DNA of 64,000 nt from a bacterium (GCA_965221165.1 CBDCRP010000003.1:512001-576000); one strand, 5' to 3'; positions 6,147 through 63,479 are shown, numbered from the stretch's first letter. The notes: generated from the sequence alone by a model not told the origin. A program made the numbers and translations.

Positions 6147-6219
6147 GAGCGGGGCCTCATGAGGTGCGGCGAGAATCGGACACCGCTACTCTACACCCTG
6201 AACCGCCGGATGAAAAACT

Positions 6220-9472
<3,253 letters not shown>

Positions 9473-9605
9473 GAATCAGGCCACCCGTTGGAAAAAGGAA
9501 AATACATGGGCCGTTTGAAAGTTTTTTCGGGGAAAGCGTTTTCCCGCGCTTTTTAATTTCCGGGCTTTCTGCAAGGAATCAAGACTCTTTTTCTCGCTCA
9601 CTCTC

Positions 9606-10697: not shown

Positions 10698-11999
10698 GGG
10701 ACGAGCGCCTCCTTCGCCGAGATCTTCATTTCACCCGCAAGCCTGCTCATCCGCAGGTTCCCGGCAACGACCGTGGCCACGGCGCAGCCCTTGAGCTTCC
10801 AGCCGGCGAAAGGAGTGTTCCTGCCGTTGCTCTCGAAAGTGTCGGGGTCGACTGTGATTTCGCGTTCGGGGTCTAAAATCGTCACGTCTCCCGGAGCGCC
10901 TTCTTTCAGCGTGCCGTAGGGCAGGCCCAGCACCTCGCACGGAGCCGCCGTGAATTTCGCGATCATCTCGGACAGCGTGAGCACGCCCCCGCCCACCAGC
11001 CTGTCCAGCGCCAGGGACACGGCCGTCTCCAGACCCACGACCCCGAACGGCACGGCGTCGAACTCCCGCTGGGTTTCCGCCTCGTAATGCGGCGCGTGGT
11101 CCGAGGCGATGGCGGATATCGTGCCGTCCTTAAGGCCTTCTAAGAGCGCTTGCCTGTTCGCCTCATCACGCAGCGGCGGCGCCATCTTGGCGGATGAGTC
11201 GAAGTCCTGAATCACCTCGTCGGTCAGGGAGAAATGGTGCGGCGTCACCTCCGCCGTCACGCGAACCCCCCGCGCGCGCGCCTGACGCACCAGGTCCACC
11301 GCGCCTGCGGAGGATATATGCAGAATGTGGAGCCTGCCTCCCGTCAGTTCCGCGAGGCGGATGTCCCGATAGACGCAGATGTCCTCGCTCGCCGCCGGGT
11401 TCCCCGCCAGGCCGAGCAGGGTGGACATCGCCCCCTCGTTCATCACCTTGCCGCCCGAGAGCGTCATATCCTCTGCGTGATCGAGCACGCTCACACCGAG
11501 CATTCCGGCGTACTCGAGGGCTGCGCGCATCAAGGCGGCCGTCTTGACGGGCACGCCGTCGTCGCTGAAGGCCACGGCGCCCGCCTCTATCTGCTCGGCC
11601 ATCTCGCTCAGTTCCTCACCCTCGAGGCCCACCGACACCGAGCCGATGGGGAACACGCGGCACGAACCCACCTCGCGCGCGCGCTTCAGGATGCGCTCGG
11701 TAATGGAACTCGTATCGTTGACCGGGTCGGTATTCGCCATGCACGCCACGCCGGTGAAACCGCCCGCGGCGGCGGCGCGGGTGCCGGTTTCGATGTCTTC
11801 CTTGTATTCCTGCCCCGGTTCCCTGAAATGGACGTGCATGTCGATGAACCCGGGCGCAACGACGAGCCCCGCCGCGTCGATGATTTCATCCCCGCCGCGC
11901 GGTAATATGTTCTTTTTTCTGTGCGCGATTTTTCCCTCTTCAATCAGGATATCGCATTTCTCATCGACCCCGTCGGAAGGGTCGATGAGGCGTCCTCCC

Positions 12000-12016
<17 letters not shown>
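10694..12016 (-). CDS. pyrC: Dihydroorotase (multifunctional-complex type)
   Basis: [29 protein letters not shown]; start moved to ATG at 12016. Confidence 0.94.
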
Positions 12017-13031
<1,015 letters not shown>

Positions 13032-13058
13032 ATCCTTCCCCCCGTAGCGCCTGGGTTT

Positions 13059-13583
13059 CTATGAGCGTTTGAAAACGGCGTCCTGGCCGTCGGTTTCCTC
13101 CAGATGCACCCGGACCTCCTCCGGATGGGCCGTCTCGATGTTCTTCCCCACGAAATCGGCGCGAATGGGGAGTTCCCGTCCCCCCCTGTCCACCAAAATG
13201 GCGAGCCGCACCCTGCGGGGCCGGCCGAAGTTGACGAGCGCGGCCAGGGCGGCCCGCGCCGTCCGGCCCGTGTAGAGCACGTCATCGACCAAAACGACGT
13301 CCTTACCCTCGCAAGAAAACGGCAAGTCCGTTTTCTTGAGACCGGTTTTCACGCCGCCGCCCTGGTTCAGGTCGTCGCGGTAGAGCGTGACGTCGAGCGC
13401 GCCCACCAGCGGACGCACGCCCACCAGAGACTGAAGCTCCCCGGCCAGTCTTTCCGCCAAGGGCACGCCCCTCGTGCGAATACCGATGAACACCAGATCC
13501 GATAGATCCGCCGTGCGCTCCAGTATTTCGTGCGAGAGACGCCTCAAGGTGCGCCTTAACTGCTCGGCATCGAGTTGTTTCAT
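13059..13583 (-). CDS. pyrR: Pyrimidine operon attenuation protein / UPRTase
   Basis: RRLSHEILER, GIRTRG, TLYRDD, VVLVDDVLYTGRT, RELPIRADFVGKN. Confidence 0.93.
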   Translation of the reverse strand: MKQLDAEQLRRTLRRLSHEILERTADLSDLVFIGIRTRGVPLAERLAGELQSLVGVRPLVGALDVTLYRDDLNQGGGVKTGLKKTDLPFSCEGKDVVLVDDVLYTGRTARAALAALVNFGRPRRVRLAILVDRGGRELPIRADFVGKNIETAHPEEVRVHLEETDGQDAVFKRS

Positions 13584-13632
13584 CGTCAAGGCAAAATCCG
13601 ATGTTCGGGCGGCCCGGTATCAAAAAAGACAC

Positions 13633-28154: not shown

Positions 28155-28763
28155 ATGAGCCAGATGATTGAAATCGTAAAACCCACCTCCTTCGTTCGCG
28201 CGGGCGACCACCCCCTGGCGGAGCGCCCCGAAGACCTGGGGGGACTCCGAATCGGCTTTTTCCACAACAACAAGCCCAACGCCGACGTTTTGCTGGAGCG
28301 AATCGAGGAGCTTTTCTCCCAACAAGACGAAACGCTGCGCTTTATCCGCTGGGGAAAGCCGAACCCGACCCTGCCGGAGGATCGCCTCGAAGAATTCCGC
28401 GAACAGGTGGACGTGGCCGTCTGCGCGGTGGGCGACTGAGGGAGTTGCACGTCATGGAGTATCCATGACTCGGTGGAGATGGAAAAGGCAGGCGTTCCGA
28501 CGGCCACGTTCTGCTCCAGTGAATTTTCGGCCCTGGGCGCGAACGAGAGAACGGCTTTGGGGATGCCCGGCCTTCCGATAGTCGTCGTGGCGCATCCGGT
28601 GGGGGGAATCGCGCCCGAAAAAGCGCGCGCTCTGGGAGACGGCGCGATGGAGGAGGTGCGGCGCATCCTCACGAGCGATGCCGAATCGCTCCGAAAGGAA
28701 TACCGGGAACGCGAATACGTCCCGCCCCGAAAGACGGTGCGCCACAAGGCGCTCTTCACATAG
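28155..28763 (+). CDS. UGSC-family selenoprotein, 202 aa, Sec at UGA 28437-28439
   Basis: ORFs 28155-28439 and 28473-28763 are in one frame: ...AVGD-UGA-GSCTSWSIHDSVEMEKAGVPT. This gives a UxxC motif, and a SECIS-like hairpin follows. Confidence 0.88.
28451..28469 (+). promoter_or_regulatory. Bacterial SECIS-like hairpin
   Basis: GTCATGGA-GTA-TCCATGAC, a perfect 8-bp stem after an 11-nt spacer from the UGA, with G in the loop. Confidence 0.8.
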
Positions 28764-47210: not shown

Positions 47211-47744
47211 ATGTCTGCAATATCCATCATGACGGCGCAAGAGCTTGAATTATCGCTGAAAAGAATCGCCTCCGAGATGATGGAGGCATGCGCTGCGGAT
47301 AAGAACATCGCCTTGGTCGGGGTGCTCACCCGGGGAGAACCGCTGGCCAGACGGCTCAAGCAGCATATCGAAGAACTCGAAAACATTGCCCCCCCTCTCG
47401 GCGCGCTCGACATCGGGGTTCACCGGGACGATGCGGGACACCCCACGGAAGGACGCGGTTTCGAACCCACCCTCATTGATTTCGACATGACGGATCGCCA
47501 GGTCTTTCTGGTCGACGACGTGTTTTTCACGGGCAGGACCGTGCGCGCGGCCCTGGACGCCATGATGGAGATGGGGCGGCCCAGGAAAATCTGGCTCGCC
47601 GCCCTGATCGACCGGGGACACAGGGAGCTTCCGTTCCGGCCCGACTTCATCGGCAAGAACGTGCCCACCTCCCTTCAGGAGCACATCCAGGTCCGGATGC
47701 GGGAGGTGGATGGCGAGGACGGCGTGTGGCTCCTGAAAAAATAA
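47211..47744 (+). CDS. pyrR: Second PyrR-family phosphoribosyltransferase
   Basis: GVLTRG, HRDD, LVDDVFFTGRT, IDRGHRELPFRPDFIGKNVPT. Confidence 0.88.
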   Translation: MSAISIMTAQELELSLKRIASEMMEACAADKNIALVGVLTRGEPLARRLKQHIEELENIAPPLGALDIGVHRDDAGHPTEGRGFEPTLIDFDMTDRQVFLVDDVFFTGRTVRAALDAMMEMGRPRKIWLAALIDRGHRELPFRPDFIGKNVPTSLQEHIQVRMREVDGEDGVWLLKK

Positions 47745-49912: not shown

Positions 49913-50881
49913 ATGGCCCCCTCTCCCGAACTACCGGAGCGCCTTCTCGTCGCCGTGGGTGGCAACGCGACCCATCCGCCCGAAATCAGGGGCACGGCCG
50001 AAGAACAGGCCGCCATCGCCGAGGCGACGGGCCGCTCGCTCCTTCCCCTCATGAGGCTTGGCAACGAACTCATCGTCACGCACGGAAACGGCCCGGTCGT
50101 GGGAAAAATCCTGATGCGCCAGGCGATCTCGAGCGAGCAGGTGACCCCCATGACGCTCGACATCTGCGTCGCGCACAGCCAGGGGGGAATCGCCTATCTG
50201 CTCATGCAGGCGTTCGAAAACGCGCTGCGCCGGGCGGGCGACCCGCGCCACGTGGTCTGCCTCCTGACCCAGGTCGAAGTCGACCCCGGCGATCCGGCCT
50301 TCGGTGCGCCGACGAAGTTCGTGGGCTACACCTACACCGAAGATGAAGCCAGGCGATACGAACGCGAGATGGGCTGGACGATGCGAGAAGACTCCGGGCG
50401 CGGCTGGCGGCACGTGGTCGCCTCCCCGAAACCAAAGCACATCGTGGACATCTCGCTCATCCAGACCATAGCGCAAAGCGGCGCCGTGGTTATCGCAGGA
50501 GGAGGCGGGGGCATTCCCGTCGTGCGCGAGGCCGACGGCGCGCGCCGGGGGCTCGCTGCCGTCATCGACAAGGATTTGACTTCCGCGCTCATGGCGAACG
50601 TCTTGAAGATAGAGACCATGATGATCCTCACCGCCGTGCCCAGGGTGGCTATCCACTTCGGGACGCCGCAGCAGCGCGAACTGGAGCGGGTTTCGCTCTC
50701 TGAAATCAAAGAGTACCACGCCCAGGGCCACTTCCCGCCCGGCAGCATGGGCCCCAAGATAGAGGCGGCGGTTCGCTTTCTCGAAGGGGGCGGGGAGCGG
50801 GTCCATATCGCCGCTCTGGAGGACGCCGTCCCCGCCCTGCTCGGCGAGGCGGGAACCTGTATTTATAAGGATGAGGGGTGA
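49913..50881 (+). CDS. arcC: Carbamate kinase
   Basis: VAVGGNA, THGNGP, PTKFVG, VASP.P, GGGGIPV, VIDKDL, GSMGPKIEA. Confidence 0.94.
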   Translation: MAPSPELPERLLVAVGGNATHPPEIRGTAEEQAAIAEATGRSLLPLMRLGNELIVTHGNGPVVGKILMRQAISSEQVTPMTLDICVAHSQGGIAYLLMQAFENALRRAGDPRHVVCLLTQVEVDPGDPAFGAPTKFVGYTYTEDEARRYEREMGWTMREDSGRGWRHVVASPKPKHIVDISLIQTIAQSGAVVIAGGGGGIPVVREADGARRGLAAVIDKDLTSALMANVLKIETMMILTAVPRVAIHFGTPQQRELERVSLSEIKEYHAQGHFPPGSMGPKIEAAVRFLEGGGERVHIAALEDAVPALLGEAGTCIYKDEG

Positions 50882-50918
50882 CCCTCAGAGAGAGTGGAAG
50901 AGAGAGGAATTGCTCTCC

Positions 50919-51019
50919 GTAGGGGCGGACCTGCGTGTCCGCCCTTTGCGAGCGCCCATGAAGCCACCGCGCCATCGGGCCGAATTGAAAATCGGGCGGA
51001 CACGCAGGTCCGCCCCTAC
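50919..51019. repeat. REPIN-like inverted pair of GTAG REPs
   Basis: gtaggggcggacctgcgtgtccgccc (50919-50944) and its exact reverse complement (50994-51019). Confidence 0.88.
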
Positions 51020-51179
51020 GCCACTTCGAAAACCGCAACCGCTCATCATAAATCGGTATTCACCCCCCACCGGCGCGCCTTTGGACACGCGCTGCGAAGG
51101 GGTGCTACGTTTTTTCCCATAACGATTCCGGTTTCCATCCGCGCGCAAGGGCGCGCACGAGGCGAAAGGGGGTTTGGAC

Positions 51180-52283
51180 ATGCAGGCCGATCTGTTCCGC
51201 GTGGCGATGGATTCACCAGACGACATATCCGGCGTGGTCGCTCTCGTCGAGGAGGGAAAATGCCGCCCCGAAGAAATCGTCGGCATCATGGGGAAAACCG
51301 AGGGAAACGGCTGCGTGAACGATTTTTCCCGGGGATTCAGCAATTTCGTTCTGCTCGATTATTTCTCAAAGGCGATGGGAAAAGCGCGAGAAAAGGTGGA
51401 AGAACAGATCGCCCTCATCATGTCCGGCGGAACCGAGGGGGTCATGTGTCCCCATTTTTCGGTGTTCACCAAGTCCGCGAGCGGGCCGGGAGACGGAAGC
51501 GCAAAGCGCCTCGCCGTCGCCTCGGGCCATACGGCGGACTTTTTGCCGGAAGAAATGGGCAGGATGCCCCAGGTCCACGCGACGGCGGATCTCATCCGGC
51601 AATTGATGGAAGAGGCGCAAATCGATAGTGCTGCGGATCTGCATTTCGTGCAGGTGAAGTGCCCGCTCTTGACCGGAGATCGCATGGCGGACGCCTTTAG
51701 GCGCGGAAAGACGGTCTGCACCGAGGACACGTATAAGTCGATGGGGTACTCGCGCGGCGCCTCGGCGCTGGGCGTGGCTCTGGCGGCCGGCGAGGTGGAA
51801 GAGAGCCTCTTGAGCGACGACGTGGTTTGTAAGGACTGGTCCCTGCAATCGGGAGTCGCCTCGACTTCTGCGGGAATCGAACTGATGTGCAACGAGGCGA
51901 TGGTCATCGGCAACAGCGCGGCCTGGGGCGGAGAACTCGTCGTCGGCCACGGCGTCATGCAGGACGCCATCGACCGCGACGCGGTTCGAGACGCCATCGT
52001 GAACGCCGGGATTTCATTCGACTGGGCGCTCTCGCCCGAGGAACGCGCGCGAATCGTCAACGTATTCGCCAAATGCGAGGCCTCCCCCGACGGCCTGGTG
52101 CGGGGCCGCAGGCACACGATGCTCGACGATTCGGACATCAACAACACGCGCCACGCCCGCTCGGTGGTGAACGCCGTGGTCTCCTCGGTCGTCGGCGACA
52201 CGATGATGTACGTCTCGGGTGGTGCTGAGCACCAGGGCCCTCCCGGCGGCGGGCCCGTCGCGGCGGTCGTCCGGGCGGAGTAG
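51180..52283 (+). CDS. atzD: Cyanuric acid amidohydrolase / ring-opening amidohydrolase (AtzD/barbiturase family)
   Basis: GKTEGNGCVNDFSRG, MSGGTEG, VQVKCPLL, SMGYSRGASALG, STSAG, YVSGGAEHQGP (cyanuric-acid-hydrolase-like rather than barbiturase-like). Confidence 0.88.
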   Translation: MQADLFRVAMDSPDDISGVVALVEEGKCRPEEIVGIMGKTEGNGCVNDFSRGFSNFVLLDYFSKAMGKAREKVEEQIALIMSGGTEGVMCPHFSVFTKSASGPGDGSAKRLAVASGHTADFLPEEMGRMPQVHATADLIRQLMEEAQIDSAADLHFVQVKCPLLTGDRMADAFRRGKTVCTEDTYKSMGYSRGASALGVALAAGEVEESLLSDDVVCKDWSLQSGVASTSAGIELMCNEAMVIGNSAAWGGELVVGHGVMQDAIDRDAVRDAIVNAGISFDWALSPEERARIVNVFAKCEASPDGLVRGRRHTMLDDSDINNTRHARSVVNAVVSSVVGDTMMYVSGGAEHQGPPGGGPVAAVVRAE

Positions 52284-52463
52284 CGCATCTACATCACTGC
52301 GCTCGAAGTCGCCGTCCCCATCCTCCGCGGCGATACGGGCGCCTGTATTTATAAGGTCAAACACGATTGATGAATGAGTGTTTGCCGACCGAGGCGGGAG
52401 AAAAATCACTCCCCCCTTTTTTATAATCACTCTCCTCTTCTCGCTCGGGTTTGACGGTTTTGA

Positions 52464-52721
52464 CGTCATTCCGGTGTCAGACCCGACCAATGCGGGAGGG
52501 TTTGCGGAATCCATTGGTTTTGCCTTTGTTTTTTATTTCCTCATTGATTCCCGCGAATAACAGGGGGATGAAGATCCAAAGCATTGTCTTTCGGCTCGGC
52601 TCTGGATTCCGGCATGCGCCGGAATGACGGCGGTGGTGAATTCCGACCGAGGAGAGAGGTTATGCGAATCGTTGATTTCCTCATCTGTAAGCAATCGCTC
52701 CCTCTTCGGTCGCGATTGACC
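52464..52721. repeat. REP cluster (CGTC-type plus an inverted pair of GGTCA hairpins)
   Basis: ctggattccggcatgcgccggaatgacg at 52602-52629; hairpin units at 52635-52666 (+) and 52690-52721 (-). Confidence 0.75.
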
Positions 52722-52725
52722 TCGC

Positions 52726-53802
52726 TTATCCCGCCGATAAGTTGCGCCTGGCTTGTACGAACACCACCGTGAGCACGATGATGGCCTGAAAGACGAACAC
52801 CGCGGCGCCCGGCAGTCCGATGCTGCGCTGCAGTGAATCGGAACCCGAGACCAGCACGGCGAACACCGCGGCGGCTATCGTCACCCCCAGCGGGTTGTTG
52901 CGCCCGATGACCGCGATCAGGATGGCCATCGCGCCGTAGTTGGGCGCGCCCTCCGCCCCGCTGATCCCCAGAAGAAGGCTCTGGTGGAATCCCGAGACCT
53001 CGATGGCCCCGGCCAGACCCGAGAGCGCGCCGCAGGTCGGCATGATGATCAGGGTGATGCGCGCGACGTTGATTCCCCCAAAACGCGCGGCCCGGGGGTT
53101 GTCCCCCACCGCGCGGATCTCATACCCGACGATGGTGCGCGTCATCAAGAAATACATGCCGAGAGCCGCCGCCAGCGCGATGATGAAGCCGAAGTGCGCG
53201 CCCGATTTCGGCATGACCTGGGGCAACACGGAAGCGTCGGGGATCGGGAGCGAGATGGCTTCTCCCGCCAGGGGGTCGTTCCAGGGGCCGTTGGCGAGGT
53301 AATCCACCAGATAGAGCGCTACGAAGTTCAGCATCACCGTCACGAAAATCTCGCTCACCCGGAAGCGCACGCGCAGGATTCCGGGAATGAATCCCCAGAA
53401 CCACCCGCCCAGAATGCCGCCCAGCATCCCGAGCGGAACGAATATCGGCCAGGGCAGGTTCAAACCTTCTAAAGCAAAGGCCGTGCCCGTCATGCCGATC
53501 GCGCCCGCGTATATCTGCCCGTCCACGCCGATGTTGAAGTGGCCCCCCCGCATCCCGAAGGCGACCGCGAGCGAGGCGAGCAGAAGCGGGCAGAATTTGT
53601 TCAAGGTCTGAGCGAATCCGCCCCACGTGCCGAGCGAGGAGCGCAAAACGGTCCCGAGCGCGACGAGCACGTCCCCGCCGAAGGCGACGATGAAGATTGC
53701 GCCGCACGCCAGGGCCAGTATAGCCGCCGTCGAGTAGGTGATCGCGATTTCAATGGCCGCTTTTTTCTTCTCGCTCACACTCGCCGCGCTTAAACTCGCC
53801 AT
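52726..53802 (-). CDS. ABC transporter permease (nucleoside/purine, BPD_transp_2 type)
   Basis: FNIGVDGQ, SEIFVTVMLNF, GYEIRAVGDNPRAA. Confidence 0.88.
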   Translation of the reverse strand: MASLSAASVSEKKKAAIEIAITYSTAAILALACGAIFIVAFGGDVLVALGTVLRSSLGTWGGFAQTLNKFCPLLLASLAVAFGMRGGHFNIGVDGQIYAGAIGMTGTAFALEGLNLPWPIFVPLGMLGGILGGWFWGFIPGILRVRFRVSEIFVTVMLNFVALYLVDYLANGPWNDPLAGEAISLPIPDASVLPQVMPKSGAHFGFIIALAAALGMYFLMTRTIVGYEIRAVGDNPRAARFGGINVARITLIIMPTCGALSGLAGAIEVSGFHQSLLLGISGAEGAPNYGAMAILIAVIGRNNPLGVTIAAAVFAVLVSGSDSLQRSIGLPGAAVFVFQAIIVLTVVFVQARRNLSAG

Positions 53803-53803
53803 T

Positions 53804-55354
53804 TTAAGAACCCGCCCCCTGTTTGTGGCCCGCCATGAGGGCGCCTATCTGGTAGATGTCGTACTCGGGGCCGTCAAAAGCGCCTGAAATCTCCCCCGCA
53901 TAGATCACGACGATGCGGTCGCTCATGAGGCGAAGCTCGTCCAGGTCTTCTGATATCAGCAACACCCCGGCTCCGCCCGCGCGAAGCTCCCGCAGTCGGC
54001 CGTGGACGAACGATGCGGCCATGACGTCGAGACCGCGCGTGGGGTTGTTGGCGATCATCACCTTTCCGCCGGTCTTGTGGGCGAGCATGACCGAGCGCGC
54101 CACGATGGTCTTCTGGATGTTTCCGCCCGAGAGATGCGCGGCGGGCACGTGCTCGTTTCGAGCCAGGATGTTGAATTCCGCGATGGCGTTTCTGCCCATC
54201 TCATGGACGGCCTCGCGCTCGAATATTCCGCGCCGCTTGAAGATGTGCGGGTGCAGGCCGAGCACGAAATTCTCCGCAAGGCTCAGGCCCGGCAGAATCC
54301 CCTCCTCGATCCTGTCCTGCGGCAGGAGGCTCATCCCCCGCGCGATGCGCCCCGACACCGAAAGGTTCGATACTTCCTCGCCGTCGATGTGGACCTCGCC
54401 CTCTTCTATTTCGATGAGCCCGGCCAGGGCTTCCGCCAGTTCCTTCTGGCCGTTTCCCGAGATGCCCGCCATGCCGACGATGAGCCCCCGGGGGACGTCG
54501 AAGGCGACGTCCTTGAGAGGAACCCCCCACTTCGCCGAGGTGCGCACCCCCTGGACGGACAAAGCGGGATGTCCCTCCCGGGCCGCCGAGGGTCCGGTCG
54601 GCCGCTCGCCCTCGGGAGGCATGCCGCGCTCGCCCATCATCATCTGGACGAGTCTTTCGCGGGTGGCCTCTTCGCGGGGGATCGTGTCGATCTTCAGCCC
54701 GCCCCGGAAGACGGTGATCCGGTCGCAGTTGTCCAGAACTTCTTGGATTTTGTGCGTGATGAAGACGACCGTCAGACCCTCCTTGGCGAAGGACTTCAAG
54801 ATGGAGAACAGGCCGTCCACCTCGTGGGGGGTTAGCATGGTCGTCGGCTCGTCCAGAATCAGGATGTCCGCGCCGTGATACAGCGCCTTCAGGATTTCGA
54901 CCTTCTGCTGAATCCCGGCGGGAAGGGTTTTCACCTGCTCATCGAGCGGGATGGAGAGGCCGTAATTCGCCGCAAGCTCCTCCACGGAACTGCGCCGGGC
55001 GTCCACGTCGAGCTTCCAGCGCGAGCCCTCTTGTCCGAGCAGAATGTTCTCGAGCGCGGTGAAATTGCCGATCAACTCCACGTGCTGGTGAACCATCCCG
55101 ACGCCGACCGCGATCGCATCCTGGGGCGAGCGGATCTCCACCTCGCGCCCTTCGATCGCAATCTGTCCATCGTCCATGCGGTAGAGGCCGCTCAGGATGT
55201 TCATGAGCGTGGTCTTGCCCGCGCCGTTCTCTCCCAGGAGGGAGTGGATCTCCCCCCTGGCGGCCTCGAAGTCCACCGCGTCGAGGGCGCGGACTTCCCC
55301 GAAGGATTTGCTGACGCCGTACATCTCGACGCGGGAATTCATTTTTTCCGTCAT
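53804..55354 (-). CDS. ABC transporter ATP-binding protein (tandem domains)
   Basis: GENGAGKTT, ILDEPT, LSGGNIQK, PTRGLD, ISEDLDE. Confidence 0.92.
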   Translation of the reverse strand: MTEKMNSRVEMYGVSKSFGEVRALDAVDFEAARGEIHSLLGENGAGKTTLMNILSGLYRMDDGQIAIEGREVEIRSPQDAIAVGVGMVHQHVELIGNFTALENILLGQEGSRWKLDVDARRSSVEELAANYGLSIPLDEQVKTLPAGIQQKVEILKALYHGADILILDEPTTMLTPHEVDGLFSILKSFAKEGLTVVFITHKIQEVLDNCDRITVFRGGLKIDTIPREEATRERLVQMMMGERGMPPEGERPTGPSAAREGHPALSVQGVRTSAKWGVPLKDVAFDVPRGLIVGMAGISGNGQKELAEALAGLIEIEEGEVHIDGEEVSNLSVSGRIARGMSLLPQDRIEEGILPGLSLAENFVLGLHPHIFKRRGIFEREAVHEMGRNAIAEFNILARNEHVPAAHLSGGNIQKTIVARSVMLAHKTGGKVMIANNPTRGLDVMAASFVHGRLRELRAGGAGVLLISEDLDELRLMSDRIVVIYAGEISGAFDGPEYDIYQIGALMAGHKQGAGS

Positions 55355-55418
55355 AACGCCTTCCGTTCGGAGCGCCCCCACCCTCGCTCGCAAGTCCGGG
55401 AGGGGGCGCTCACATCTT

Positions 55419-56420
55419 CTATTTCGCCAACATGACCTTTTTCATCACGAGCCGGGGCTTGATAGCTCCGTTGCGCACCTTTTCATACGTCTCTTTGGTT
55501 CTCTTCATGGCCTCGGCGGATACGTTCCCCAGCGAACCGAGCTCGAAGCCGTTCCCCGAGCGCATGGCGACGTATCCCCCGGGGGATCCTTTCAGGATTC
55601 CTTCCATGACCTGCCGGTAGGGAGGCCGGAAGTCGATGATCAGCGTGCCCGCGAAATGCTTGGGCGCCTTGTCCGTCTTGTCGGTGTAGAACGTGGTGAT
55701 CAGCACCTTGCGCTTCGCCTTCTTGGCGGCCTCTGCCACCCCGTACACGCCCAGGTTCACCATGTTGATGATGAAGTCCACGCCGCCTGCGATCATGGCG
55801 TCGGCGGTCTGGCGCGCCTTGACCGGATCGTTCTGGTTTCCGGTGAAGGCGTAGGAGAGCTTCGCCTTTGGGTTGGTCGCCTTGAGGGCGTCCGAGATGG
55901 TGTTGATGGAAGCCTTGAAATCCGGAAGCGGGATTCCCACGATGACGCTCACCTTGTTCGTCTTCGTGGCGAGGCCGGCAAGCACGCCGAAGGGATAGAA
56001 GGCCTCGAAATAGTGGCGGTGAATGTTCCAGACGTTTCCGGGAACCTTGAACTTGCCCGAACTCTCCATGACGAAAGTCACTTCGGGGAATTTCGGCGCC
56101 AGCTTCTGCACGAGCCGGACGTATTGTCCGCCGTGGAAACCGATGATGGTGAAGCCCGAGGAGATGTACTCGCGCGCCACCCGCTCGGCGTCCGCCGGGG
56201 AGATGCGCTCGGAGTAGGAGGTTTCGATCTTGAACCTCTTCTTGATGTCCTGGGCGACCTCATAGCCCCGGAAGTTGTAGTCCGCATCCTCGATGGGTCC
56301 GGGCAGGATGACGGCGAACTTGTGGGCCTTCGCGGCGAGCGCCGGGACGGCCAGGGTCAGGGATAGGGCCGCGAGCGCGGCGGCGGCGAAGAACAATCGG
56401 CGTGTCCATTTGGTTTTCAT
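55419..56420 (-). CDS. BMP-family substrate-binding protein
   Basis: Signal peptide, ILPGPIEDADYN, ATKTNKV, AMIAGGVDFI; GGAG before ATG at 56420. Confidence 0.82.
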   Translation of the reverse strand: MKTKWTRRLFFAAAALAALSLTLAVPALAAKAHKFAVILPGPIEDADYNFRGYEVAQDIKKRFKIETSYSERISPADAERVAREYISSGFTIIGFHGGQYVRLVQKLAPKFPEVTFVMESSGKFKVPGNVWNIHRHYFEAFYPFGVLAGLATKTNKVSVIVGIPLPDFKASINTISDALKATNPKAKLSYAFTGNQNDPVKARQTADAMIAGGVDFIINMVNLGVYGVAEAAKKAKRKVLITTFYTDKTDKAPKHFAGTLIIDFRPPYRQVMEGILKGSPGGYVAMRSGNGFELGSLGNVSAEAMKRTKETYEKVRNGAIKPRLVMKKVMLAK

Positions 56421-56466
56421 TTCACACTCCTCCTTGATGAGAAAGCACATTATCCCGGGCGCGGGC

Positions 56467-57408
56467 TCAATCCCGGGTTTCACGGTCGTAAGGCCTCGTA
56501 AGCGCGCGGGGGCTCTCGGCGCCCCGCGCGACCTGGACCAGAACAATCATGGCGAACACGTACGGCAGCATCAGCAAAAACTGCGGCGGAATGATTTTGG
56601 CGAACTGCGGCAGGGCGTTCACCTTGAACTGAAAGGCGTCCACGTAGGCGAAGAGCAGCGCGCCGACGAACGACCATACCGGAACCCACCGCCCGAATAT
56701 CACCAGCATCAGGGCGAGCCACCCCCTTCCGTTCACGATGTTGTCCGTGAACGAGCCCGAGATCACGAGCGGCAGGTATGCCCCCGCCACGCCCAGAAAA
56801 AGTCCGCCCACCGCGCACGCGCCGTAGCGCATGCGGGCGACGTCGATCCCCACCGTGTCCGCCGCGCGCGGGTTTTCCCCGCAGGCGCGCAGCCTCAGGC
56901 CCAGCGGCGTCTTGAAGAGGAAAAAACTCACCGCCGCTACCAGGAAATAGGACATGTAGACGAGTCCGTTCTGCGCGAAGAAAATCTCGCCGATGTAGGG
57001 GATTGCGCCCAGAAGCGGGATTTTTATCTCTTGTAATGTCGGCACCTGGGGGATGGATTGCACGACGCCCACCGCCAGCCGGTAGATGGTGGGCGATACC
57101 CCCAGTCCCAGGACGAATATTCCCAGCCCGATGACGATCTGGTTCGCGCGCAGTGTGATGGAGAAATACGCCAGAAGCAACGTCAGCACGCTCCCCGAGA
57201 GCGCCGCGACCATGCAGCCGATGACCGCGCTGCCCGAGTAGTAGGTGAGCAGAAAGCCCGTCACCGAGCCGAGCGTCACGATGCCCTCGATGCCGACGTT
57301 CAGAATCCCCGAGCGTTCGATGATTGTCTCGCCCAGGCACGCGATGATGAGCGGCGCCATCATGAGCATAGTGAGCTGGAAAAGGGATATATCGAACAAA
57401 AGGGACAA
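56467..57408 (-). CDS. ABC transporter permease
   Basis: GETIIERSGILNVGIEG, GLRLRACGENP, GRGWLAL, LPYV; start approximate. Confidence 0.88.
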   Translation of the reverse strand: MSLLFDISLFQLTMLMMAPLIIACLGETIIERSGILNVGIEGIVTLGSVTGFLLTYYSGSAVIGCMVAALSGSVLTLLLAYFSITLRANQIVIGLGIFVLGLGVSPTIYRLAVGVVQSIPQVPTLQEIKIPLLGAIPYIGEIFFAQNGLVYMSYFLVAAVSFFLFKTPLGLRLRACGENPRAADTVGIDVARMRYGACAVGGLFLGVAGAYLPLVISGSFTDNIVNGRGWLALMLVIFGRWVPVWSFVGALLFAYVDAFQFKVNALPQFAKIIPPQFLLMLPYVFAMIVLVQVARGAESPRALTRPYDRETRD

Positions 57409-57770
57409 GAAGGCGTACTCCCCGCAGTGGTATGAAAATGTGAACACTCGTCTCCGCGCGCCGCTTCCCGGGAGACGGGGCATATTGTCCTTGTGGCTTG
57501 GCGGTCAGTATGCCTCATGTATTTCTCAAATTCAAAATACCGCCTTTATGTTTCCGGCGTGTAACGCGGATTTTTCCTTTCCAATTTTTCATTCCGTTCC
57601 CTCTAATCAGCCTCGGCGCGCCGTCCGCCGCGTTGCGTTCGCGATGAAGGCGGATGCGTTGCCCGCCGCGTTCGGTTCATACATAATGCGCCCATTGCAC
57701 ACGCTTCCCTATGAACCGACTGCCAAGATGGAGATCGTTTCTTTTCTTCGTCCAAAAGGAGACCTCCGAA

Positions 57771-58487
57771 ATGGAATTGATCGATCTGAGCATGGAAATA
57801 TACCGGGACATGCCGATTTACCCGGACCTGCCCGGCCCCTCTCTCACCGTCGATGAAGACTGGGACACCGTGGCCCGGCGCACGGGCTCGATCAACTACG
57901 GCGCCCCCATCGTGACGAACCACTGCGTCATCTTCATGAGCGACCACACCGGAACGCACATCGACTCTCCCTGGCACAACAACCCCGAGGGCTTCACGAC
58001 TGAGCGCATCCCGATAGAATGGTGCATGTCGGACGGCGTGGTTCTCGATTTCACCGACAAGGAGGCGGGCTACGCGATCACGGCGGCGGACCTGGAAGGC
58101 GCGCTCCGGAAGATCGACTACACGCTCAAGCCTTTGGACATCGTGCTCATCCGCACCGACGCGAGCGTGGACTGGCAGACGAACCCCGACTACACGATGA
58201 ACCAGCCCGGCATGAGCGCCGAGGCGACCCACTACCTCATCGACAACGGCATACGCGTGATGGGGATCGACGCGAGCGGCTGGGACGTTCCGATCTGGAA
58301 GATGCACGAGACGCGCAGCTACTGGGAAGCCCACCGGGTCATGCTCGAGAAGGACTACTGCCACATGGAGAACATGGTGAACTTGAACCTGATCCCCAAG
58401 TCCCACGGGTTCAAGCTCTCGGTGCTGCCCATCAAGTTCCGAGGCATGTCGGGCTCCCCCATTCGCGCGGTGGCGATCATCGAGTAG
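57771..58487 (+). CDS. Cyclase-family (kynurenine formamidase-like) metallohydrolase
   Basis: LIDLS, HTGTHIDSPWH (HxGTHxDxPxH), MGID, HMEN, GSPIRAVA. Confidence 0.9.
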   Translation: MELIDLSMEIYRDMPIYPDLPGPSLTVDEDWDTVARRTGSINYGAPIVTNHCVIFMSDHTGTHIDSPWHNNPEGFTTERIPIEWCMSDGVVLDFTDKEAGYAITAADLEGALRKIDYTLKPLDIVLIRTDASVDWQTNPDYTMNQPGMSAEATHYLIDNGIRVMGIDASGWDVPIWKMHETRSYWEAHRVMLEKDYCHMENMVNLNLIPKSHGFKLSVLPIKFRGMSGSPIRAVAIIE

Positions 58488-58512
58488 CCCTCGGGCAACT
58501 GGAGCGAGTGAA

Positions 58513-60069
58513 ATGGCGCTGGCCGTCCGCGTCCTGGCAGGCGCGTACCACGATTCGGTGAAGCTCATGCGCATCAGCGCCTCCGCGTGCGAAAGGCCGG
58601 GGGTCCGGAGGGCGGTGGCCCTCATGGGCACGCCGATGAATCTGGAGCAACTCGCATCGAGCGGCCTGTTGGCGGAAGAAGCGAAAGGCGCCGGCCCGAA
58701 CGACCTCGTCCTCGCCGTGGAGGCGGATGGCGCAAGCGCGGCGCAAAAAGAACTCACCATTATGGAAGCGGCGCTCACAGCCCCCCGCACGGGCGCGGGA
58801 GCGGGCGCGTTCGCGAACCTCTCGGCGCCCACTCTGGATGCCGCGCTCGACAATGACCCTCTCATCAACCTGGCGCTTTTCTCGATTCCGGGCGCAAGCG
58901 TGCGCCGCGAGGCGGAGCGCGCGCTCAAAAAAGGTCTCCACTGCCTCATCTTCAGCGACAACGTGACTGTTGAAGACGAGGTGGCGCTCAAGCGCATGGG
59001 GCGCGAGCGGGGTCTGCTCGTCATGGGTCCCGACTGCGGCACGGCGCACATAGGCGGCGTGGGCCTCGGGTTTTGCAACGTCATGCGCCCCGGCGGAATC
59101 GGGATCGCGGGCGCGGCGGGAACGGGGATTCAGGAAGCCATGGCCGCCATCGACGCAAGCGGCGGCGGAATCTCCTGCGCGCTCGGGACTGGCGGGCGCG
59201 ACGTGTCGGACGCGGTCGGTGGGCTCGCCATGATCCAGGCTATTGAAACTCTTAGCGAAGATACGGCGACGGAAGTTCTCCTCGTTCTCGGGAAACCGCC
59301 CGAGGCCGCCGCGATGGAAAAAGTGTTGGAGACGACTGCGCGAAGCGCAAAGCCCGCCGTCATTCACTTCGTCGGAGGCCGGAGCGAGGATGTCCGCAAA
59401 CATCCCGGTCTTCACGCGGCCGATTCGCTGGCCGCGGCGGGAAGGCTCGCGGCATCTCTGAGTGAAGGGCGCATCGACGCAGCAGCTCCTGAAATCGACT
59501 CTGAAACGAGAGAAAGAATCGCCGAATGGAATCGCGCGCGCGCGCAGGGGCGGAGATTCCTGCGCGGCGTCTACACGGGCGGAACGCTGTGCGCCGAGGC
59601 GCAGGCGCTCATCGGAAGAACCGTGGCGGGGATTCGCTCCAACGCGCCCCTCGATAAAGCGGGCGGCAAGATGGCCGACCCCATGAAATCACAAGGCCAT
59701 GCGGTCGTGGATATGGGGGATGACCTCTTCACGCGGGGAAAACCCCATCCCATGATCGAGCCTGCGCCGAGGAACACGAGACTCCTTCAGGAAGCCGAAG
59801 ACCCCGAGACGGCGGTGGTGCTCCTAGACTTGGTACTGGGGTTGGGCGCGCATGATAACCCGGCGGAAGAGGCGGCGGGAGCGATCGAGAGTGCGCGAGA
59901 ATCGAGTCCCGGCGTCTTGTTCATCGGCTCCGTCACGGGGACGGAGGGCGACCCGCAGGGTTTGGAGGCCCAGCGCGTCCGGCTGGCCGAGGCCGGAGCC
60001 TTGGTGGCTGATACCCACGCCGGGGCGTGTCTGGCCGCCGCCGCCGCACTCGAGGAGCTTGTCGAGTGA
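58513..60069 (+). CDS. fdrA: FdrA (AllF-like), succinyl-CoA synthetase-related protein
   Basis: YHDSVKLM, MGTPMN, IFSDNV, MGPDCGT, GTGIQE, GGTLCAEA, DMGDD..T.GKPHPMI. Confidence 0.9.
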   Translation: MALAVRVLAGAYHDSVKLMRISASACERPGVRRAVALMGTPMNLEQLASSGLLAEEAKGAGPNDLVLAVEADGASAAQKELTIMEAALTAPRTGAGAGAFANLSAPTLDAALDNDPLINLALFSIPGASVRREAERALKKGLHCLIFSDNVTVEDEVALKRMGRERGLLVMGPDCGTAHIGGVGLGFCNVMRPGGIGIAGAAGTGIQEAMAAIDASGGGISCALGTGGRDVSDAVGGLAMIQAIETLSEDTATEVLLVLGKPPEAAAMEKVLETTARSAKPAVIHFVGGRSEDVRKHPGLHAADSLAAAGRLAASLSEGRIDAAAPEIDSETRERIAEWNRARAQGRRFLRGVYTGGTLCAEAQALIGRTVAGIRSNAPLDKAGGKMADPMKSQGHAVVDMGDDLFTRGKPHPMIEPAPRNTRLLQEAEDPETAVVLLDLVLGLGAHDNPAEEAAGAIESARESSPGVLFIGSVTGTEGDPQGLEAQRVRLAEAGALVADTHAGACLAAAAALEELVE

Positions 60070-61484
60070 ACCCGAAAAAACTGCTGGAGGGCGTTCGCGT
60101 TGCGAACATCGGAGTGGAGTTGTTCGCGGAAAGCCTCGTTTCGCAGAATGCGCCCGTTGTGCAGGTGGACTGGCGTCCCCCCGCCGGAGGAGACCCGGAC
60201 ATGATCGAACATCTCGACCGGCTGAGCGTTTGCGATGCGGCCAACGATGCCGCGATAGAGCGCCTTCAGGCCGCAAGGCCCGTGTGGGCGGATATAGGCG
60301 TCGCCATCGAGGAGGTACCCGGCATGGGAGAGCGAACCCTCCTGCACTCAGGGCCTCCCATCACCTGGGAGAGAATGTCCGGCCCCCTGCGCGGCGCGAT
60401 GATAGGGGCGGCCCTCTTGGAGGGCTGGGCGAACGATGCGGACGCGGCGGAAAGACTCTGCGCGAGCGGAGAAATCGCTTTTGAGCCCTGCCACCACCAT
60501 TCGGCGGTGGGGCCGATGGCGGGCGTGGTGTCGCCCTCGATGCCCGTGAGCGTCATCGAAAACCGCGCGGCCTCTGAACTCGGGGGCGGCAACAGGGCCT
60601 ATTGCACCTTGAACGAGGGCTTGGGCAAGGTGCTGCGCTACGGCGCGTATTCGCCCGACGTGCTGGCGCGCCTCCGCTGGATGGCGGACGAACTGGCCCC
60701 CGCCCTGCGCGCGGCGCTGCGAGCGACCCCCGAGGGACTCGACGTCAAGAACGTCATCGCGCGCGCCCTGCACATGGGCGATGAGGCGCACAACCGGAAC
60801 CACGCGGCGACCTCCACGGTGGCCCGCGCCCTCATGCCCTACCTCGCGGATTCTGTGAGCGATACGAAGGTGATCTCCCGCGTGGCGGAATTTTTCGCCG
60901 GAAACGATCATTTTTTTCTGAATCTGGCGATGCCAGCCGCCAAGGCGAGCCTCGACACCATGCCGGGGATCGAGGGCTGCTCTTTGGTCTACGCCATGTC
61001 GCGCAACGGAACGGATTTCGGCATCAGAGTGGGCGGCCTGGGAGACGCTTGGTTCACCGCGCCAGCGAAGCACCCGGTCGGCCTGTTCTTCCCGGGCTAT
61101 TCCCAGGAAGACGCAAATCCCGACATCGGCGATTCGGCCATCATGGAGACCTTGGGCGTCGGCGGATTCGCGATGGCCGCAGCGCCCGCCATCGTCGAGT
61201 TCGTGGGAGGCTCGACCGCCGAGGCCTTTCAGGCGACGAACGAGATGTACGGAATCACCTGGGCGAGGAGCCGCGACTATACCCTCCCCGTATTCGATTT
61301 CGCGGGCGTCCCGACCGGAATCGACGTCCGCAAGGTGATCGAGACGGGCATATACCCCAACATCAACACCGGAATCGCCCACCGCGATCCAGGCGTAGGA
61401 CAGATAGGCGCGGGCGTTCTGCGCGCGCCCGAGGAGCCGTTTCAAAAGGCCTTCGAAGCCCTCGCCGAGAAGATGGGCAGGTAG
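60066..61484 (+). CDS. DUF1116 protein (YlbE/AllG-like)
   Basis: QVDWRPPAGG, LLHSGPP, VGPMAG, LHMGDEAHNRN, SRNG, PDIGDSAI.ET, INTGIAH; GTGA overlap with fdrA. Confidence 0.9.
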   Translation: MNPKKLLEGVRVANIGVELFAESLVSQNAPVVQVDWRPPAGGDPDMIEHLDRLSVCDAANDAAIERLQAARPVWADIGVAIEEVPGMGERTLLHSGPPITWERMSGPLRGAMIGAALLEGWANDADAAERLCASGEIAFEPCHHHSAVGPMAGVVSPSMPVSVIENRAASELGGGNRAYCTLNEGLGKVLRYGAYSPDVLARLRWMADELAPALRAALRATPEGLDVKNVIARALHMGDEAHNRNHAATSTVARALMPYLADSVSDTKVISRVAEFFAGNDHFFLNLAMPAAKASLDTMPGIEGCSLVYAMSRNGTDFGIRVGGLGDAWFTAPAKHPVGLFFPGYSQEDANPDIGDSAIMETLGVGGFAMAAAPAIVEFVGGSTAEAFQATNEMYGITWARSRDYTLPVFDFAGVPTGIDVRKVIETGIYPNINTGIAHRDPGVGQIGAGVLRAPEEPFQKAFEALAEKMGR

Positions 61485-61958: not shown

Positions 61959-61987
61959 TTGACAGGGAACGGCCCGAGCCATACGAT
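61959..61987 (+). promoter_or_regulatory. sigma70-type promoter for the Liv-type ABC operon
   Basis: TTGACA-N17-TACGAT. Confidence 0.65.
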
Positions 61988-62157
61988 TTCTCTAACTTCA
62001 CAATACAGAACCGGATTCGAGAAAGCTTCCTGCACGAAACCAGGAGGCGCTTGTGATGGATTCACCCTCTCTCCTGCGAAGGCCGTCCTCTCGAAATCCG
62101 TCCGCGCGGTCCGCGGGCGGCAAGCCGTCTTCCACATCGAGTCCAGGGATAAATCGC

Positions 62158-62195
62158 AGCGCCCCGGCGGATTACCGTCCGGGCGCTTTTCTTTT
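62158..62195 (+). terminator. Terminator-like hairpin inside the 5' leader
   Basis: AGCGCCC...GGGCGCT stem with inner pairing, followed by TTTCTTTT. Confidence 0.55.
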
Positions 62196-62261
62196 CAAAG
62201 GGGGCCGCAGCGCCCGAAGCCTTCCTCCGGCGATGCGGACCCTTCATTTGGAGGAACAAGA

Positions 62262-63479
62262 ATGAGCGCACGCATGAAACGAGGATTCGCTATTTTTGTG
62301 GGATTGGCGTTCGCCTTGGGCGTCGTTCTTTCGGTCGCGCCCGCCCAGGCGGCGAAGAAGCCGGTCGTCATCGGGGTGGCCATCGCACTCTCAGGAAAAG
62401 TTTCCAAATCCGGGAAACTCACCCTTCGCGGATATGAGATGTGGCAGCGCGAAGTCAACGCGCGAGGCGGGCTGCTCGGCCGCAAGGTGGTGCTCAAGGT
62501 CTACGACGATGAGAGCAACCCCACCACCGGGGCGAAGCTCATCGAACGCCTCATCAACCGCGACAAGGCGGAAATCATCTTCGGCCCGTTCAGCAGTCCG
62601 GTCACCTACGCGACGAGCACCGTCACCGAGAAATACAAGTATCCCATGATCGCAGGCGGCTCGAGCAGTTCCAAGCCGTTCTCCCGGGGCTACAAGTATC
62701 TCTTCCAGGTGATGCGGGTGAACAACGACGCGCTTCTCGGCAACCTCTCCCTCTTGAAGGAAAAGGGCGCCAAGACCATCGCGGTCATCCACTCGGCGAG
62801 CATCTACCCGTCCTCTCTCGCCAAAGGGGTCGTGAAGCTAGGCAAGAAGCTCGGCTTCAAGGTGCTTTCGGTGGACAAGTATCCCCCGAAGACGACGGAC
62901 TTCACCTCGCTCCTCCTCAAGGCGAAGGGGATGAACCCCGACGTGCTCTGCCTGTTCGGCTACTACCCCGACGGGCTGGCCATTTCCAAGCAGGCCAAGG
63001 AGCTGGACGTCAACCCCCGCCACTTGAACGTCATGCTGGGAGCCTCTTATGAAGAGTACGGCTCGAAGAAGGGCGTGGGCCTGGATTCGAATTACGTGAG
63101 CGGCTACACGGGCTGGGAGCCGTTCATGAACACGCCGGGCAACAAGGCGTTCGTGAAGAGATATTTCGATGAGTACAAGGACGACCGCTTCATGGACTCG
63201 CACGTCACCTACGGCTACATCGTCGGCCAGGTGATGGAAAAGGCGGTGAACAAGGTCGGCTCGTTCAATCGGGATAGAATCCGCGACGCGATCGCCGCGA
63301 TGAAGTTCGACAGCCTCATGCCGGGAGAGTTCCGGGTGGACCCGAAGTCCGGCATGCAGATCGGACACGAGTGGGCGGCCTTCCAGTGGCAAAACGGCAA
63401 AAAGGTCATCGTATGGCCGAAGAACGTCGCCACGGGTGAATTCGTCTACCCGACGCCCAAGTGGAGAGCAAGGAACTAG
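62262..63479 (+). CDS. Branched-chain amino acid-type ABC substrate-binding protein
   Basis: Signal peptide, VNARGGLLGRKV.L.VYDDESNP, IFGPFSS, QWQNGK..IVWP. Confidence 0.9.
   Translation: MSARMKRGFAIFVGLAFALGVVLSVAPAQAAKKPVVIGVAIALSGKVSKSGKLTLRGYEMWQREVNARGGLLGRKVVLKVYDDESNPTTGAKLIERLINRDKAEIIFGPFSSPVTYATSTVTEKYKYPMIAGGSSSSKPFSRGYKYLFQVMRVNNDALLGNLSLLKEKGAKTIAVIHSASIYPSSLAKGVVKLGKKLGFKVLSVDKYPPKTTDFTSLLLKAKGMNPDVLCLFGYYPDGLAISKQAKELDVNPRHLNVMLGASYEEYGSKKGVGLDSNYVSGYTGWEPFMNTPGNKAFVKRYFDEYKDDRFMDSHVTYGYIVGQVMEKAVNKVGSFNRDRIRDAIAAMKFDSLMPGEFRVDPKSGMQIGHEWAAFQWQNGKKVIVWPKNVATGEFVYPTPKWRARN

Follow-up and report, generated by a model that had tools for sequence, protein, structure and literature searches.

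A cyanuric acid hydrolase gene joined to FdrA/AllG and carbamate kinase genes: a possible ATP-conserving ending for cyanurate breakdown

The breakdown of triazine herbicides and that of melamine converge on cyanuric acid as their end point, and the compound is also mass-produced as a chlorine stabiliser. What a gene for a cyanuric acid hydrolase of the AtzD/TrzD type might be doing beside genes that make and use carbamoyl phosphate is the question raised by an island at positions 49913-61484 of the stretch analysed here, C3:512001-576000 of GCA_965221165.1 (64,000 nucleotides, hereafter the window). Along with AtzD, the island encodes carbamate kinase (CK), the FdrA/AllF and DUF1116/AllG subunits of a carbamoyltransferase family, a cyclase-family hydrolase and a BMP-type ABC importer. 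The initial annotation of the window had placed AtzD, FdrA/DUF1116 and CK together, and the view that they are one functional unit is supported because the same genes recur in at least five clades of the AtzD tree and on plasmids of cultured cyanurate users, one of them with a characterised TrzD. By analogy with the known use of oxalurate, we consider it moderately probable that this is a catabolic island in which a cyanurate-derived or biuret-type N-carbamoyl intermediate would be phosphorolysed to carbamoyl phosphate, which CK would then turn into ATP.

Genes were called from a listing of open reading frames (ORFs) and from family-profile scans (Pfam, NCBIfam) of the window's proteins. Each gene named in the initial annotation, CK and AtzD, the BMP importer and then cyclase-fdrA-DUF1116, was recovered:

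49913-50881, plus strand: carbamate kinase, arcC/allK type (NF009007, TIGR00746)
51174-52283, plus strand: ring-opening amidohydrolase of the cyanuric acid hydrolase type, AtzD/TrzD (NF052395, PF09663)
52726-53802, minus strand: ABC importer permease 2 (PF02653, 128.2 bits)
53804-55393, minus strand: ABC importer ATPase with two cassettes (PF00005 in two stretches, 149.1 bits)
55419-56546, minus strand: BMP/PnrA-like substrate-binding protein (PF02608, 104.7 bits)
56467-57483, minus strand: ABC importer permease 1 (PF02653, 103.9 bits)
57771-58487, plus strand (ORF from 57711): cyclase-family metal hydrolase, 238 aa (PF04199, 131 bits)
58513-60069, plus strand: FdrA/AllF-type subunit (NF004760, 444.2 bits)
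60027-61484, plus strand: DUF1116/AllG-type subunit (PF06545, 314 bits)

The cyclase, FdrA and DUF1116/AllG genes are tightly packed, all on the plus strand; CK, also on that strand, sits 7.6 kb upstream of FdrA.

Recurrence of the gene set

A metagenome scan with an AtzD alignment gave 80 loci (49-84% identity). FdrA and/or AllG lay in the same locus as AtzD in eight of them (L039, L040, L044, L045, L046, L047, L049 and L052); within these eight, AllH was directly upstream of FdrA in four and CK was present in three, while BiuH-like isochorismatases (below the equivalog cut-off) and cytosine-deaminase-like amidohydrolases were found in three each. The locus L045 carries AllH-FdrA-AllG-AtzD-YdcZ-CK-BMP on one strand. 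On a quick maximum-likelihood AtzD tree of 105 rows, the FdrA/AllG-linked AtzDs fall in at least five clades (with the Moorella cyanuric acid hydrolase, with a Tepidimicrobium sequence, with a Chloroflexi sequence, in one metagenomic clade and in the window's own), and well-supported branches force at least six changes of the linkage label. Seven loci of different lineages (L136:7843-9207, L137:8459-9694, L044, L045, L046, L049 and L052) also have, next to AtzD or FdrA, a protein of 410-455 aa that belongs to no Pfam family; its copies are 31-55% identical. It is probably a membrane transporter, with weak DcuC-like similarity; tblastn found none in the window's genome.

Cultured bacteria carry the combination on plasmids. 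In a plasmid collection, 132 records have an AtzD homologue and 182 an AllG homologue; 44 of the best 48 of the 132 AtzD rows are also among the 60 of the 182 AllG rows listed, the distance between the two genes being 0.05-5.3 kb. Plasmid pSR8 of Aminobacter sp. SR38 has an array on one strand that begins hypothetical-fdrA-DUF1116-ring-opening amidohydrolase-arcC-amidohydrolase and continues with BMP-ABC ATPase-two permeases-DUF2877. Only 30 bases separate DUF1116 from trzD and 16 bases trzD from arcC. The AtzD-family protein of pSR8 matches 5t13, the TrzD of Acidovorax citrulli (PMC5366886), with 810.3 bits over residues 1-370 and, judged by that match, is TrzD itself. Neither an amidase-signature gene nor an isochorismatase gene was found on pSR8. 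Strain SR38 grows on atrazine as sole nitrogen source and has trzD on this 197-kb contig (PMC8407692), and for each strain of its consortium, SR38 included, atrazine or cyanuric acid is described as the nitrogen source used for growth (preprint 10.1101/581041).

A second plasmid arrangement is seen in Citrobacter freundii pE51_002, where copies of IS26 enclose hypothetical-AtzD-NCS2 permease-DUF2877-fdrA-DUF1116-arcC-LysR; the AtzD of this plasmid is Moorella-like (583.7 bits to 6bum). The IS26-flanked cassette (L137, NZ_CP042536.1 106458-116536) occurs on large conjugative Enterobacterales plasmids, with more than 40 records listed, and the sources written in many of these records are clinical or plumbing.

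Conservation among close relatives was followed with a genome scan using AtzD, which gave 16 loci, 15 of them 85-93% identical to the window's AtzD. Of these 15 loci, 13 keep the importer (permease 2 likewise), 12 the cyclase, 11 FdrA and 10 AllG; where a gene is missing, the contig is short, the locus ends early or, in one case, there is a 3.8-kb insertion. The window's cluster lies on the chromosome, between flanks that are conserved. Whether its two sub-clusters are linked elsewhere was a point on which the initial annotation had made its proposal depend: they are joined in 11 of the 15 close loci, in 8 of the 80 metagenome AtzD loci and on plasmids.

Gene presence was also searched in 41 genomes, the window's own included. 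An AtzD-family gene and AllG are present in each of the 24 family relatives, together with a single AllH that is never near the cluster. Each of the 14 relatives with a window-type AtzD has CK, at most 2 kb from AtzD in 10 of them, about 15 kb away and beyond AllG in two, 705 kb away in one, and on another contig beside AllG in one. In four other genera, CK adjoins AllH (G024) or AllG (G023, G029, G030 and G032).

The enzymes and the route they might form

The window's AtzD passes the equivalog model for cyanuric acid amidohydrolase (NF052395, 521.5 bits; cut-off 360), lies above the TIGR02714 cut-off (513.2 against 153.1) and gives 492 bits to PF09663. Its best match among solved structures is TrzD 5t13 (489.7 bits), followed by the Moorella enzyme 6bum (455.2), AtzD 4bvq (389) and barbiturase 5hwe (268.4). 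In an alignment of the window's AtzD with 15 homologues, the Moorella cyanuric acid hydrolase included (alignment A1), the columns K41, S84, K162, S232, K300, S348, R53, R194 and R326 are invariant, and so is the metal loop SGGAEHQGP (S348-P356). Three Ser-Lys dyads, each with a partner Arg, are a published feature of cyanuric acid hydrolases (PMC6557486); our columns were equated with those dyads by sequence motif, the numbering being off by 1-5. The product of such an enzyme is carboxybiuret, which loses CO2 to give biuret (PMC5366886). Family membership thus makes the window's AtzD a predicted cyanuric acid hydrolase, which would open cyanurate to carboxybiuret.

Since barbiturases belong to the AtzD family, the homologue might instead open another ring, that of barbiturate or of a pyrimidine-derived ureide, with a product such as ureidomalonate being phosphorolysed. 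A PyrR gene lies nearby, and elsewhere uracil phosphoribosyltransferase, cytosine-deaminase-like amidohydrolases and nucleobase permeases are found near such clusters. We regard this as highly unlikely, given the score above the cyanuric acid hydrolase equivalog cut-off, the much stronger match to TrzD than to barbiturase, the place of the window's AtzD on the tree with the clades that hold the Moorella enzyme, and the apparent identity of the pSR8 homologue as TrzD itself.

The genome has a second AtzD-family paralogue (C2:310812-311918, locus L118:9812-10918), 42% identical to the window's AtzD, whose neighbours are an Amidohydro_1 enzyme, RidA, an amine oxidase and another cyclase, and not BiuH, AtzE or AtzF. 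This paralogue is retained in most members of the genus.

The CK is above the cut-off of NF009007 (315.4 bits; cut-off 266), slightly below that of TIGR00746 (334.7 against 358.25), and single-copy in the genome by tblastn. A pyrimidine operon with pyrR-like, pyrB, pyrC-like, carA and carB genes lies at window positions 6191-13589 on the minus strand, and no arginine deiminase gene (arcA) was found in the genome. As the organism has its own carbamoyl phosphate synthetase (carAB), the role of CK is likely catabolic.

FdrA exceeds the NF004760 cut-off (433) and has E. coli FdrA 3dmy as its solved relative (253.9 bits), while AllG is far above the PF06545 cut-off (27) and matches the solved relative 3clq with 417.2 bits over residues 70-480. 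At its N-terminus, AllG has a stretch of ~66 residues equivalent to the C-terminal part of E. coli FdrA: residues 14-66 match residues 421-473 of 3dmy and positions 504-554 of NF004760. The segment equal to the E. coli FdrA C-terminus is encoded at 60027-60230 on the plus strand and begins, in another frame, immediately beyond the stop of FdrA. Compared with E. coli, the subunit boundary therefore appears shifted, which would fit a physical FdrA-AllG complex. FdrA and AllG are of similar size in distant loci such as L046 and L052.

The third subunit known from E. coli, AllH (DUF2877, PF11392), has no match in the window and is not encoded with AllF and AllG here. The initial annotation, which saw no DUF2877 gene, was correct for the window. 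The organism, however, has one, at G000:C3:749176-750120 on the minus strand, 175 kb from the cluster and beside a PanE/ApbA gene. It is the sole DUF2877/AllH gene in the genome, and its product aligns over its full length with the DUF2877 protein of pSR8 (25% identity, E 2e-18). The genome also has a second AllG gene, which adjoins a cytosine-deaminase-like amidohydrolase gene, and three FdrA paralogues, two beyond the island copy, of which two are paired with amidases. Those FdrA-amidase pairs, without AllG, lie at G000:C3:30333-33401 and G000:C2:76662-79740 and would represent another use of the FdrA scaffold.

The true start of the cyclase is the ATG at 57771 (MELIDL...) and not the ORF start at 57711, as two relatives have in-frame stops upstream and solved homologues align from that ATG. 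PF04199, the family of kynurenine formamidase and isatin hydrolase, is matched well above its cut-off (23.1), and the metal-binding motif HxGTHxDxPxH aligns with that of 8hmo; the protein is not an arylformamidase equivalog (TIGR03035, 60.1 against 223.05). At 89-98% identity across 13 relatives, the cyclase is the most conserved protein of the cluster, FdrA being 72-84% identical in 11 close relatives. It has about fifteen paralogues in the genome. Among the 80 metagenome AtzD loci, a cyclase was found only in L038, which the tree places together with L035 in the AtzD clade of the window itself, and the closest plasmid-borne cyclase, that of Thermomicrobium roseum (47.9%), is without a neighbouring FdrA or AllG. 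In L035 (10038-14015) and L038 (11469-15386), which form a lower-GC sub-lineage, a gene for a fused hydantoinase A/B of the oxoprolinase type (1305-1325 aa) stands between the ABC importer and the cyclase. The position of the cyclase directly upstream of FdrA, which is AllH's place in L045, L046, L049 and L052, suggested that it might substitute for AllH. We did not adopt this idea, as AllH is kept in every family relative and other lineages have unrelated hydrolases plus AllH.

In the importer, the start codon of the BMP binding protein is uncertain, since its ORF overlaps the next gene by 80 bases. The best solved relative of the protein is the atrazine periplasmic binding protein AtzT 6pi5 (E 4.2e-20), which bound guanine and 2-hydroxyatrazine (PMC6834077).

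Taken in order, the BMP-type ABC system would import the substrate, and AtzD, if it acts as its family does, would open the cyanurate ring to carboxybiuret. The cyclase-family hydrolase would probably deaminate biuret or a related intermediate to allophanate; this is the weakest step. By analogy with oxalurate, FdrA/AllG, probably with the unlinked AllH, may then move the terminal carbamoyl of allophanate or carboxybiuret to phosphate. Allophanate and carboxybiuret would bear the same terminal N-carbamoyl-amide as oxalurate. Finally, CK, from its family, would turn carbamoyl phosphate into ATP, ammonia and CO2. The net result would be the release of all three nitrogens as ammonia without urease, together with one or two ATP per ring.

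The hydrolase that accompanies the shared genes varies by lineage, being a BiuH-like isochorismatase, a cytosine-deaminase-like amidohydrolase or, here, the cyclase. Such variation would fit one shared task, such as the conversion of biuret to allophanate. It is a tentative possibility, and one we hold with more doubt than confidence, that there is a widespread and partly mobile phosphorolytic cyanurate route in which AllF/AllG(/AllH) is an allophanate/carboxybiuret carbamoyltransferase, the amidohydrolase is swappable and the cyclase was recruited as a new biuret (or allophanate) hydrolase.

Other routes, and the case against a phosphorolytic ending

The assembly comprises 3.69 Mb in 3 contigs and is estimated to be 96.34% complete. 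A full hydrolytic biuH/atzEF route, whose presence would have told against the initial annotation, was not found in it. None of the four isochorismatase-family genes reaches the BiuH cut-off (NF050097, 370), the best scoring 116.6, and none of the 12 amidases scanned, of 14 amidase-signature places, reaches the AtzE cut-offs. No match to urease alpha (PF00449) was found in the genome. None of the 14 amidase-signature or four isochorismatase places falls in the window, and so the window is, as first described, devoid of a biuret hydrolase, an AtzE/AtzF amidase or a urease. The genome-wide search for DUF2877 and biuH that had been proposed thus turned up the former, as one unlinked gene, and not the latter.

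Given that the only characterised member of the FdrA/AllG family uses oxalurate, as described in the accessible text of PMC11326118, the pair could be a true oxamate carbamoyltransferase (OXTCase) acting on purine-derived oxalurate, which would lie beside a hydrolytic cyanurate gene only through a shared involvement in nitrogen scavenging. Both FdrA and AllG belong to that family, and allFGHK genes beside biuret genes have been published as oxalurate use (PMC12625717). However, in the window's genome the best matches to allantoinase (318 against a cut-off of 357.85) and allantoate amidohydrolase AllC (289.7 against 597.75) are below cut-off; its six Ldh_2 genes are uninformative for an allantoin-to-oxalurate context. 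Moreover, the operon-level joining with AtzD/TrzD recurs in several clades and on plasmids, and the atrazine plasmid pSR8 has no other candidate for the steps after TrzD. An oxalurate role is for these reasons unlikely.

Several observations weigh against a phosphorolytic cyanurate route. The link of AtzD to FdrA/AllG is clade-restricted: in two large AtzD clades (50 and 13 rows), FdrA or AllG is present in none of the 31 loci with at least 5 kb of flank. Instead, genes of the AtzE-like or isochorismatase kind are found in several loci of these unlinked clades. The sister family f4 has AtzD apart from an AllG-CK pair. OXTCase activity needs three genes (PMC11326118), yet AllH here is 175 kb away, and in the accessible text of that study AllFGH-type activity is biochemically known only on oxalurate and oxamate. 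An allophanate-hydrolase-like ORF at C2:449406-450785, on another contig and among unrelated genes, scores over the cut-offs of the two allophanate hydrolase models (642.5 against 487 and 596.4 against 511.05), with only their amidase part covered. With this unlinked amidase and 13 other amidase places in the genome, one of them near-AtzE (409.2 against 461, between BON-domain and serine hydroxymethyltransferase genes), there is room for a hydrolytic finish. The assembly also carries 8.47% contamination and, at its completeness, absences are not proof. Lastly, the close relative G013 has CK-importer-cyclase-FdrA-AllG without AtzD, just 284 bp lying where AtzD lies in the window, and in G009, which has the module, neither AtzD nor CK was found.

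The arrangement in G013 suggests that the substrate of the carbamoyl-transfer module may be a linear ureide, for instance biuret, that is brought in by the importer, AtzD being a feeder. On that account, the importer-cyclase-FdrA/AllG-CK core would act on biuret, triuret or another N-carbamoyl compound and AtzD would be optional, as the module without AtzD in G009 also suggests; in comammox Nitrospira and ammonia-oxidising archaea, too, biuH/trtA genes are published beside allFGHK and bmpA-nupABC, with no atzD according to the accessible text (PMC12625717). Against it stand the presence of AtzD inside the cluster in 14 of the family relatives searched and in five other clades, and the close spacing of trzD between DUF1116 and arcC on pSR8. 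We consider this account unlikely. It overlaps with the phosphorolytic cyanurate reading and does not exclude it.

The ATP-conserving, phosphorolytic proposal of the initial annotation is in sum partly supported. The genes form one unit, are linked elsewhere and stand in a genome in which no full hydrolytic route was found; on the other side are the DUF2877 gene, present in the genome and unlinked, the arrangement in G013 and the unlinked allophanate-hydrolase-like amidase.

The remainder of the window consists of housekeeping genes. A Peripla_BP_6 gene at 61959-63479 was considered as a cluster member; two LivH/M-type permeases and a gene of the dihydrodipicolinate synthase family come next, and no sign of membership was found. 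Immediately before the island is a second PyrR gene (47211-47744, plus strand), whose position is kept in relatives. A UGSC-family frame (PF24696) at 28155-28763 on the plus strand is interrupted by an in-frame TGA at 28437-28439; with the TGA read as selenocysteine the product runs ...VGD-U-GSC..., likely a selenoprotein of a known family.

Significance and comparison with known systems

If the proposed route is true, cyanurate breakdown would have an energy-conserving, urease-independent ending, which would explain the cyanuric acid hydrolase of strict anaerobes such as Moorella. AllFGH, an enzyme class identified only recently, would gain a second physiological substrate, the genes beside the well-studied TrzD would acquire a new reading, and cyanurate- or biuret-type compounds would be indicated as a nitrogen source for this uncultured marine-type lineage. 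Aminobacter sp. SR38, which is cultured, grows on cyanurate and has the whole set on one plasmid, provides a testable strain.

In the accessible text of the published accounts, the lower pathway of cyanurate is purely hydrolytic, proceeding by AtzD-AtzEGH-AtzF in Pseudomonas sp. ADP and by AtzD/TrzD-BiuH-AtzF in Rhizobium (PMC6219798, PMC5806882). The window shares with these pathways the first enzyme, a predicted cyanuric acid hydrolase, as well as a binding protein whose nearest solved relative is AtzT, from an atrazine plasmid. It differs in that no BiuH, AtzE or urease was found in its genome, FdrA/AllG, CK and the cyclase standing in their place.

In E. coli, AllFGH catalyses the reversible reaction of oxalurate and phosphate to oxamate and carbamoyl phosphate, and AllK is a catabolic carbamate kinase (PMC11326118). 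Like that system, the window has FdrA/AllF and DUF1116/AllG above family cut-offs near CK in an organism in which no urease was found, and the chemistry proposed here, N-acyl-urea plus phosphate giving carbamoyl phosphate, would be alike. In contrast to E. coli, the cluster is without AllH, no allantoin-route genes above cut-off were found in the genome, the partner is a predicted cyanuric acid hydrolase accompanied by a BMP importer and a cyclase, and the start of AllG encodes what in E. coli are the final ~50 residues of FdrA.

The clusters of comammox Nitrospira and ammonia-oxidising archaea resemble the window in having ureide genes beside AllFGH, CK and a BMP-type ABC importer. They differ in being without atzD, and their authors read allFGHK as oxalurate use, as far as the accessible text of PMC12625717 goes. 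That paper was the only one in which our literature search met cyanuric acid hydrolase and carbamate kinase together (its supplements were outside the search), and among the papers listed for trzD none joins it with carbamate kinase, fdrA, DUF1116 or DUF2877. The hydrolase is known and so is the carbamoyltransferase/kinase module; for their union as a cyanurate route, with an unlinked AllH and a cyclase, no description was found in the literature.

The closest parallels are the pSR8 and IS26 cassettes, which are known as annotated records, their function not described. Both have the same set as the window, namely FdrA, DUF1116, AtzD/TrzD and CK, with a BMP-type ABC importer as well on pSR8. 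Identity to the window's proteins on pSR8 and in the Enterobacterales cassette, respectively, is 62% and 55% for AtzD, 51% and 50% for AllG, and 46% and 45% for CK. Unlike the window's cluster, both cassettes have DUF2877 in the array, and the place of the window's cyclase is taken by an enzyme of the amidohydrolase superfamily on pSR8 and by a nucleobase permease in the Enterobacterales cassette. The plasmid cassettes are mobile, whereas the window's cluster is part of the chromosome.

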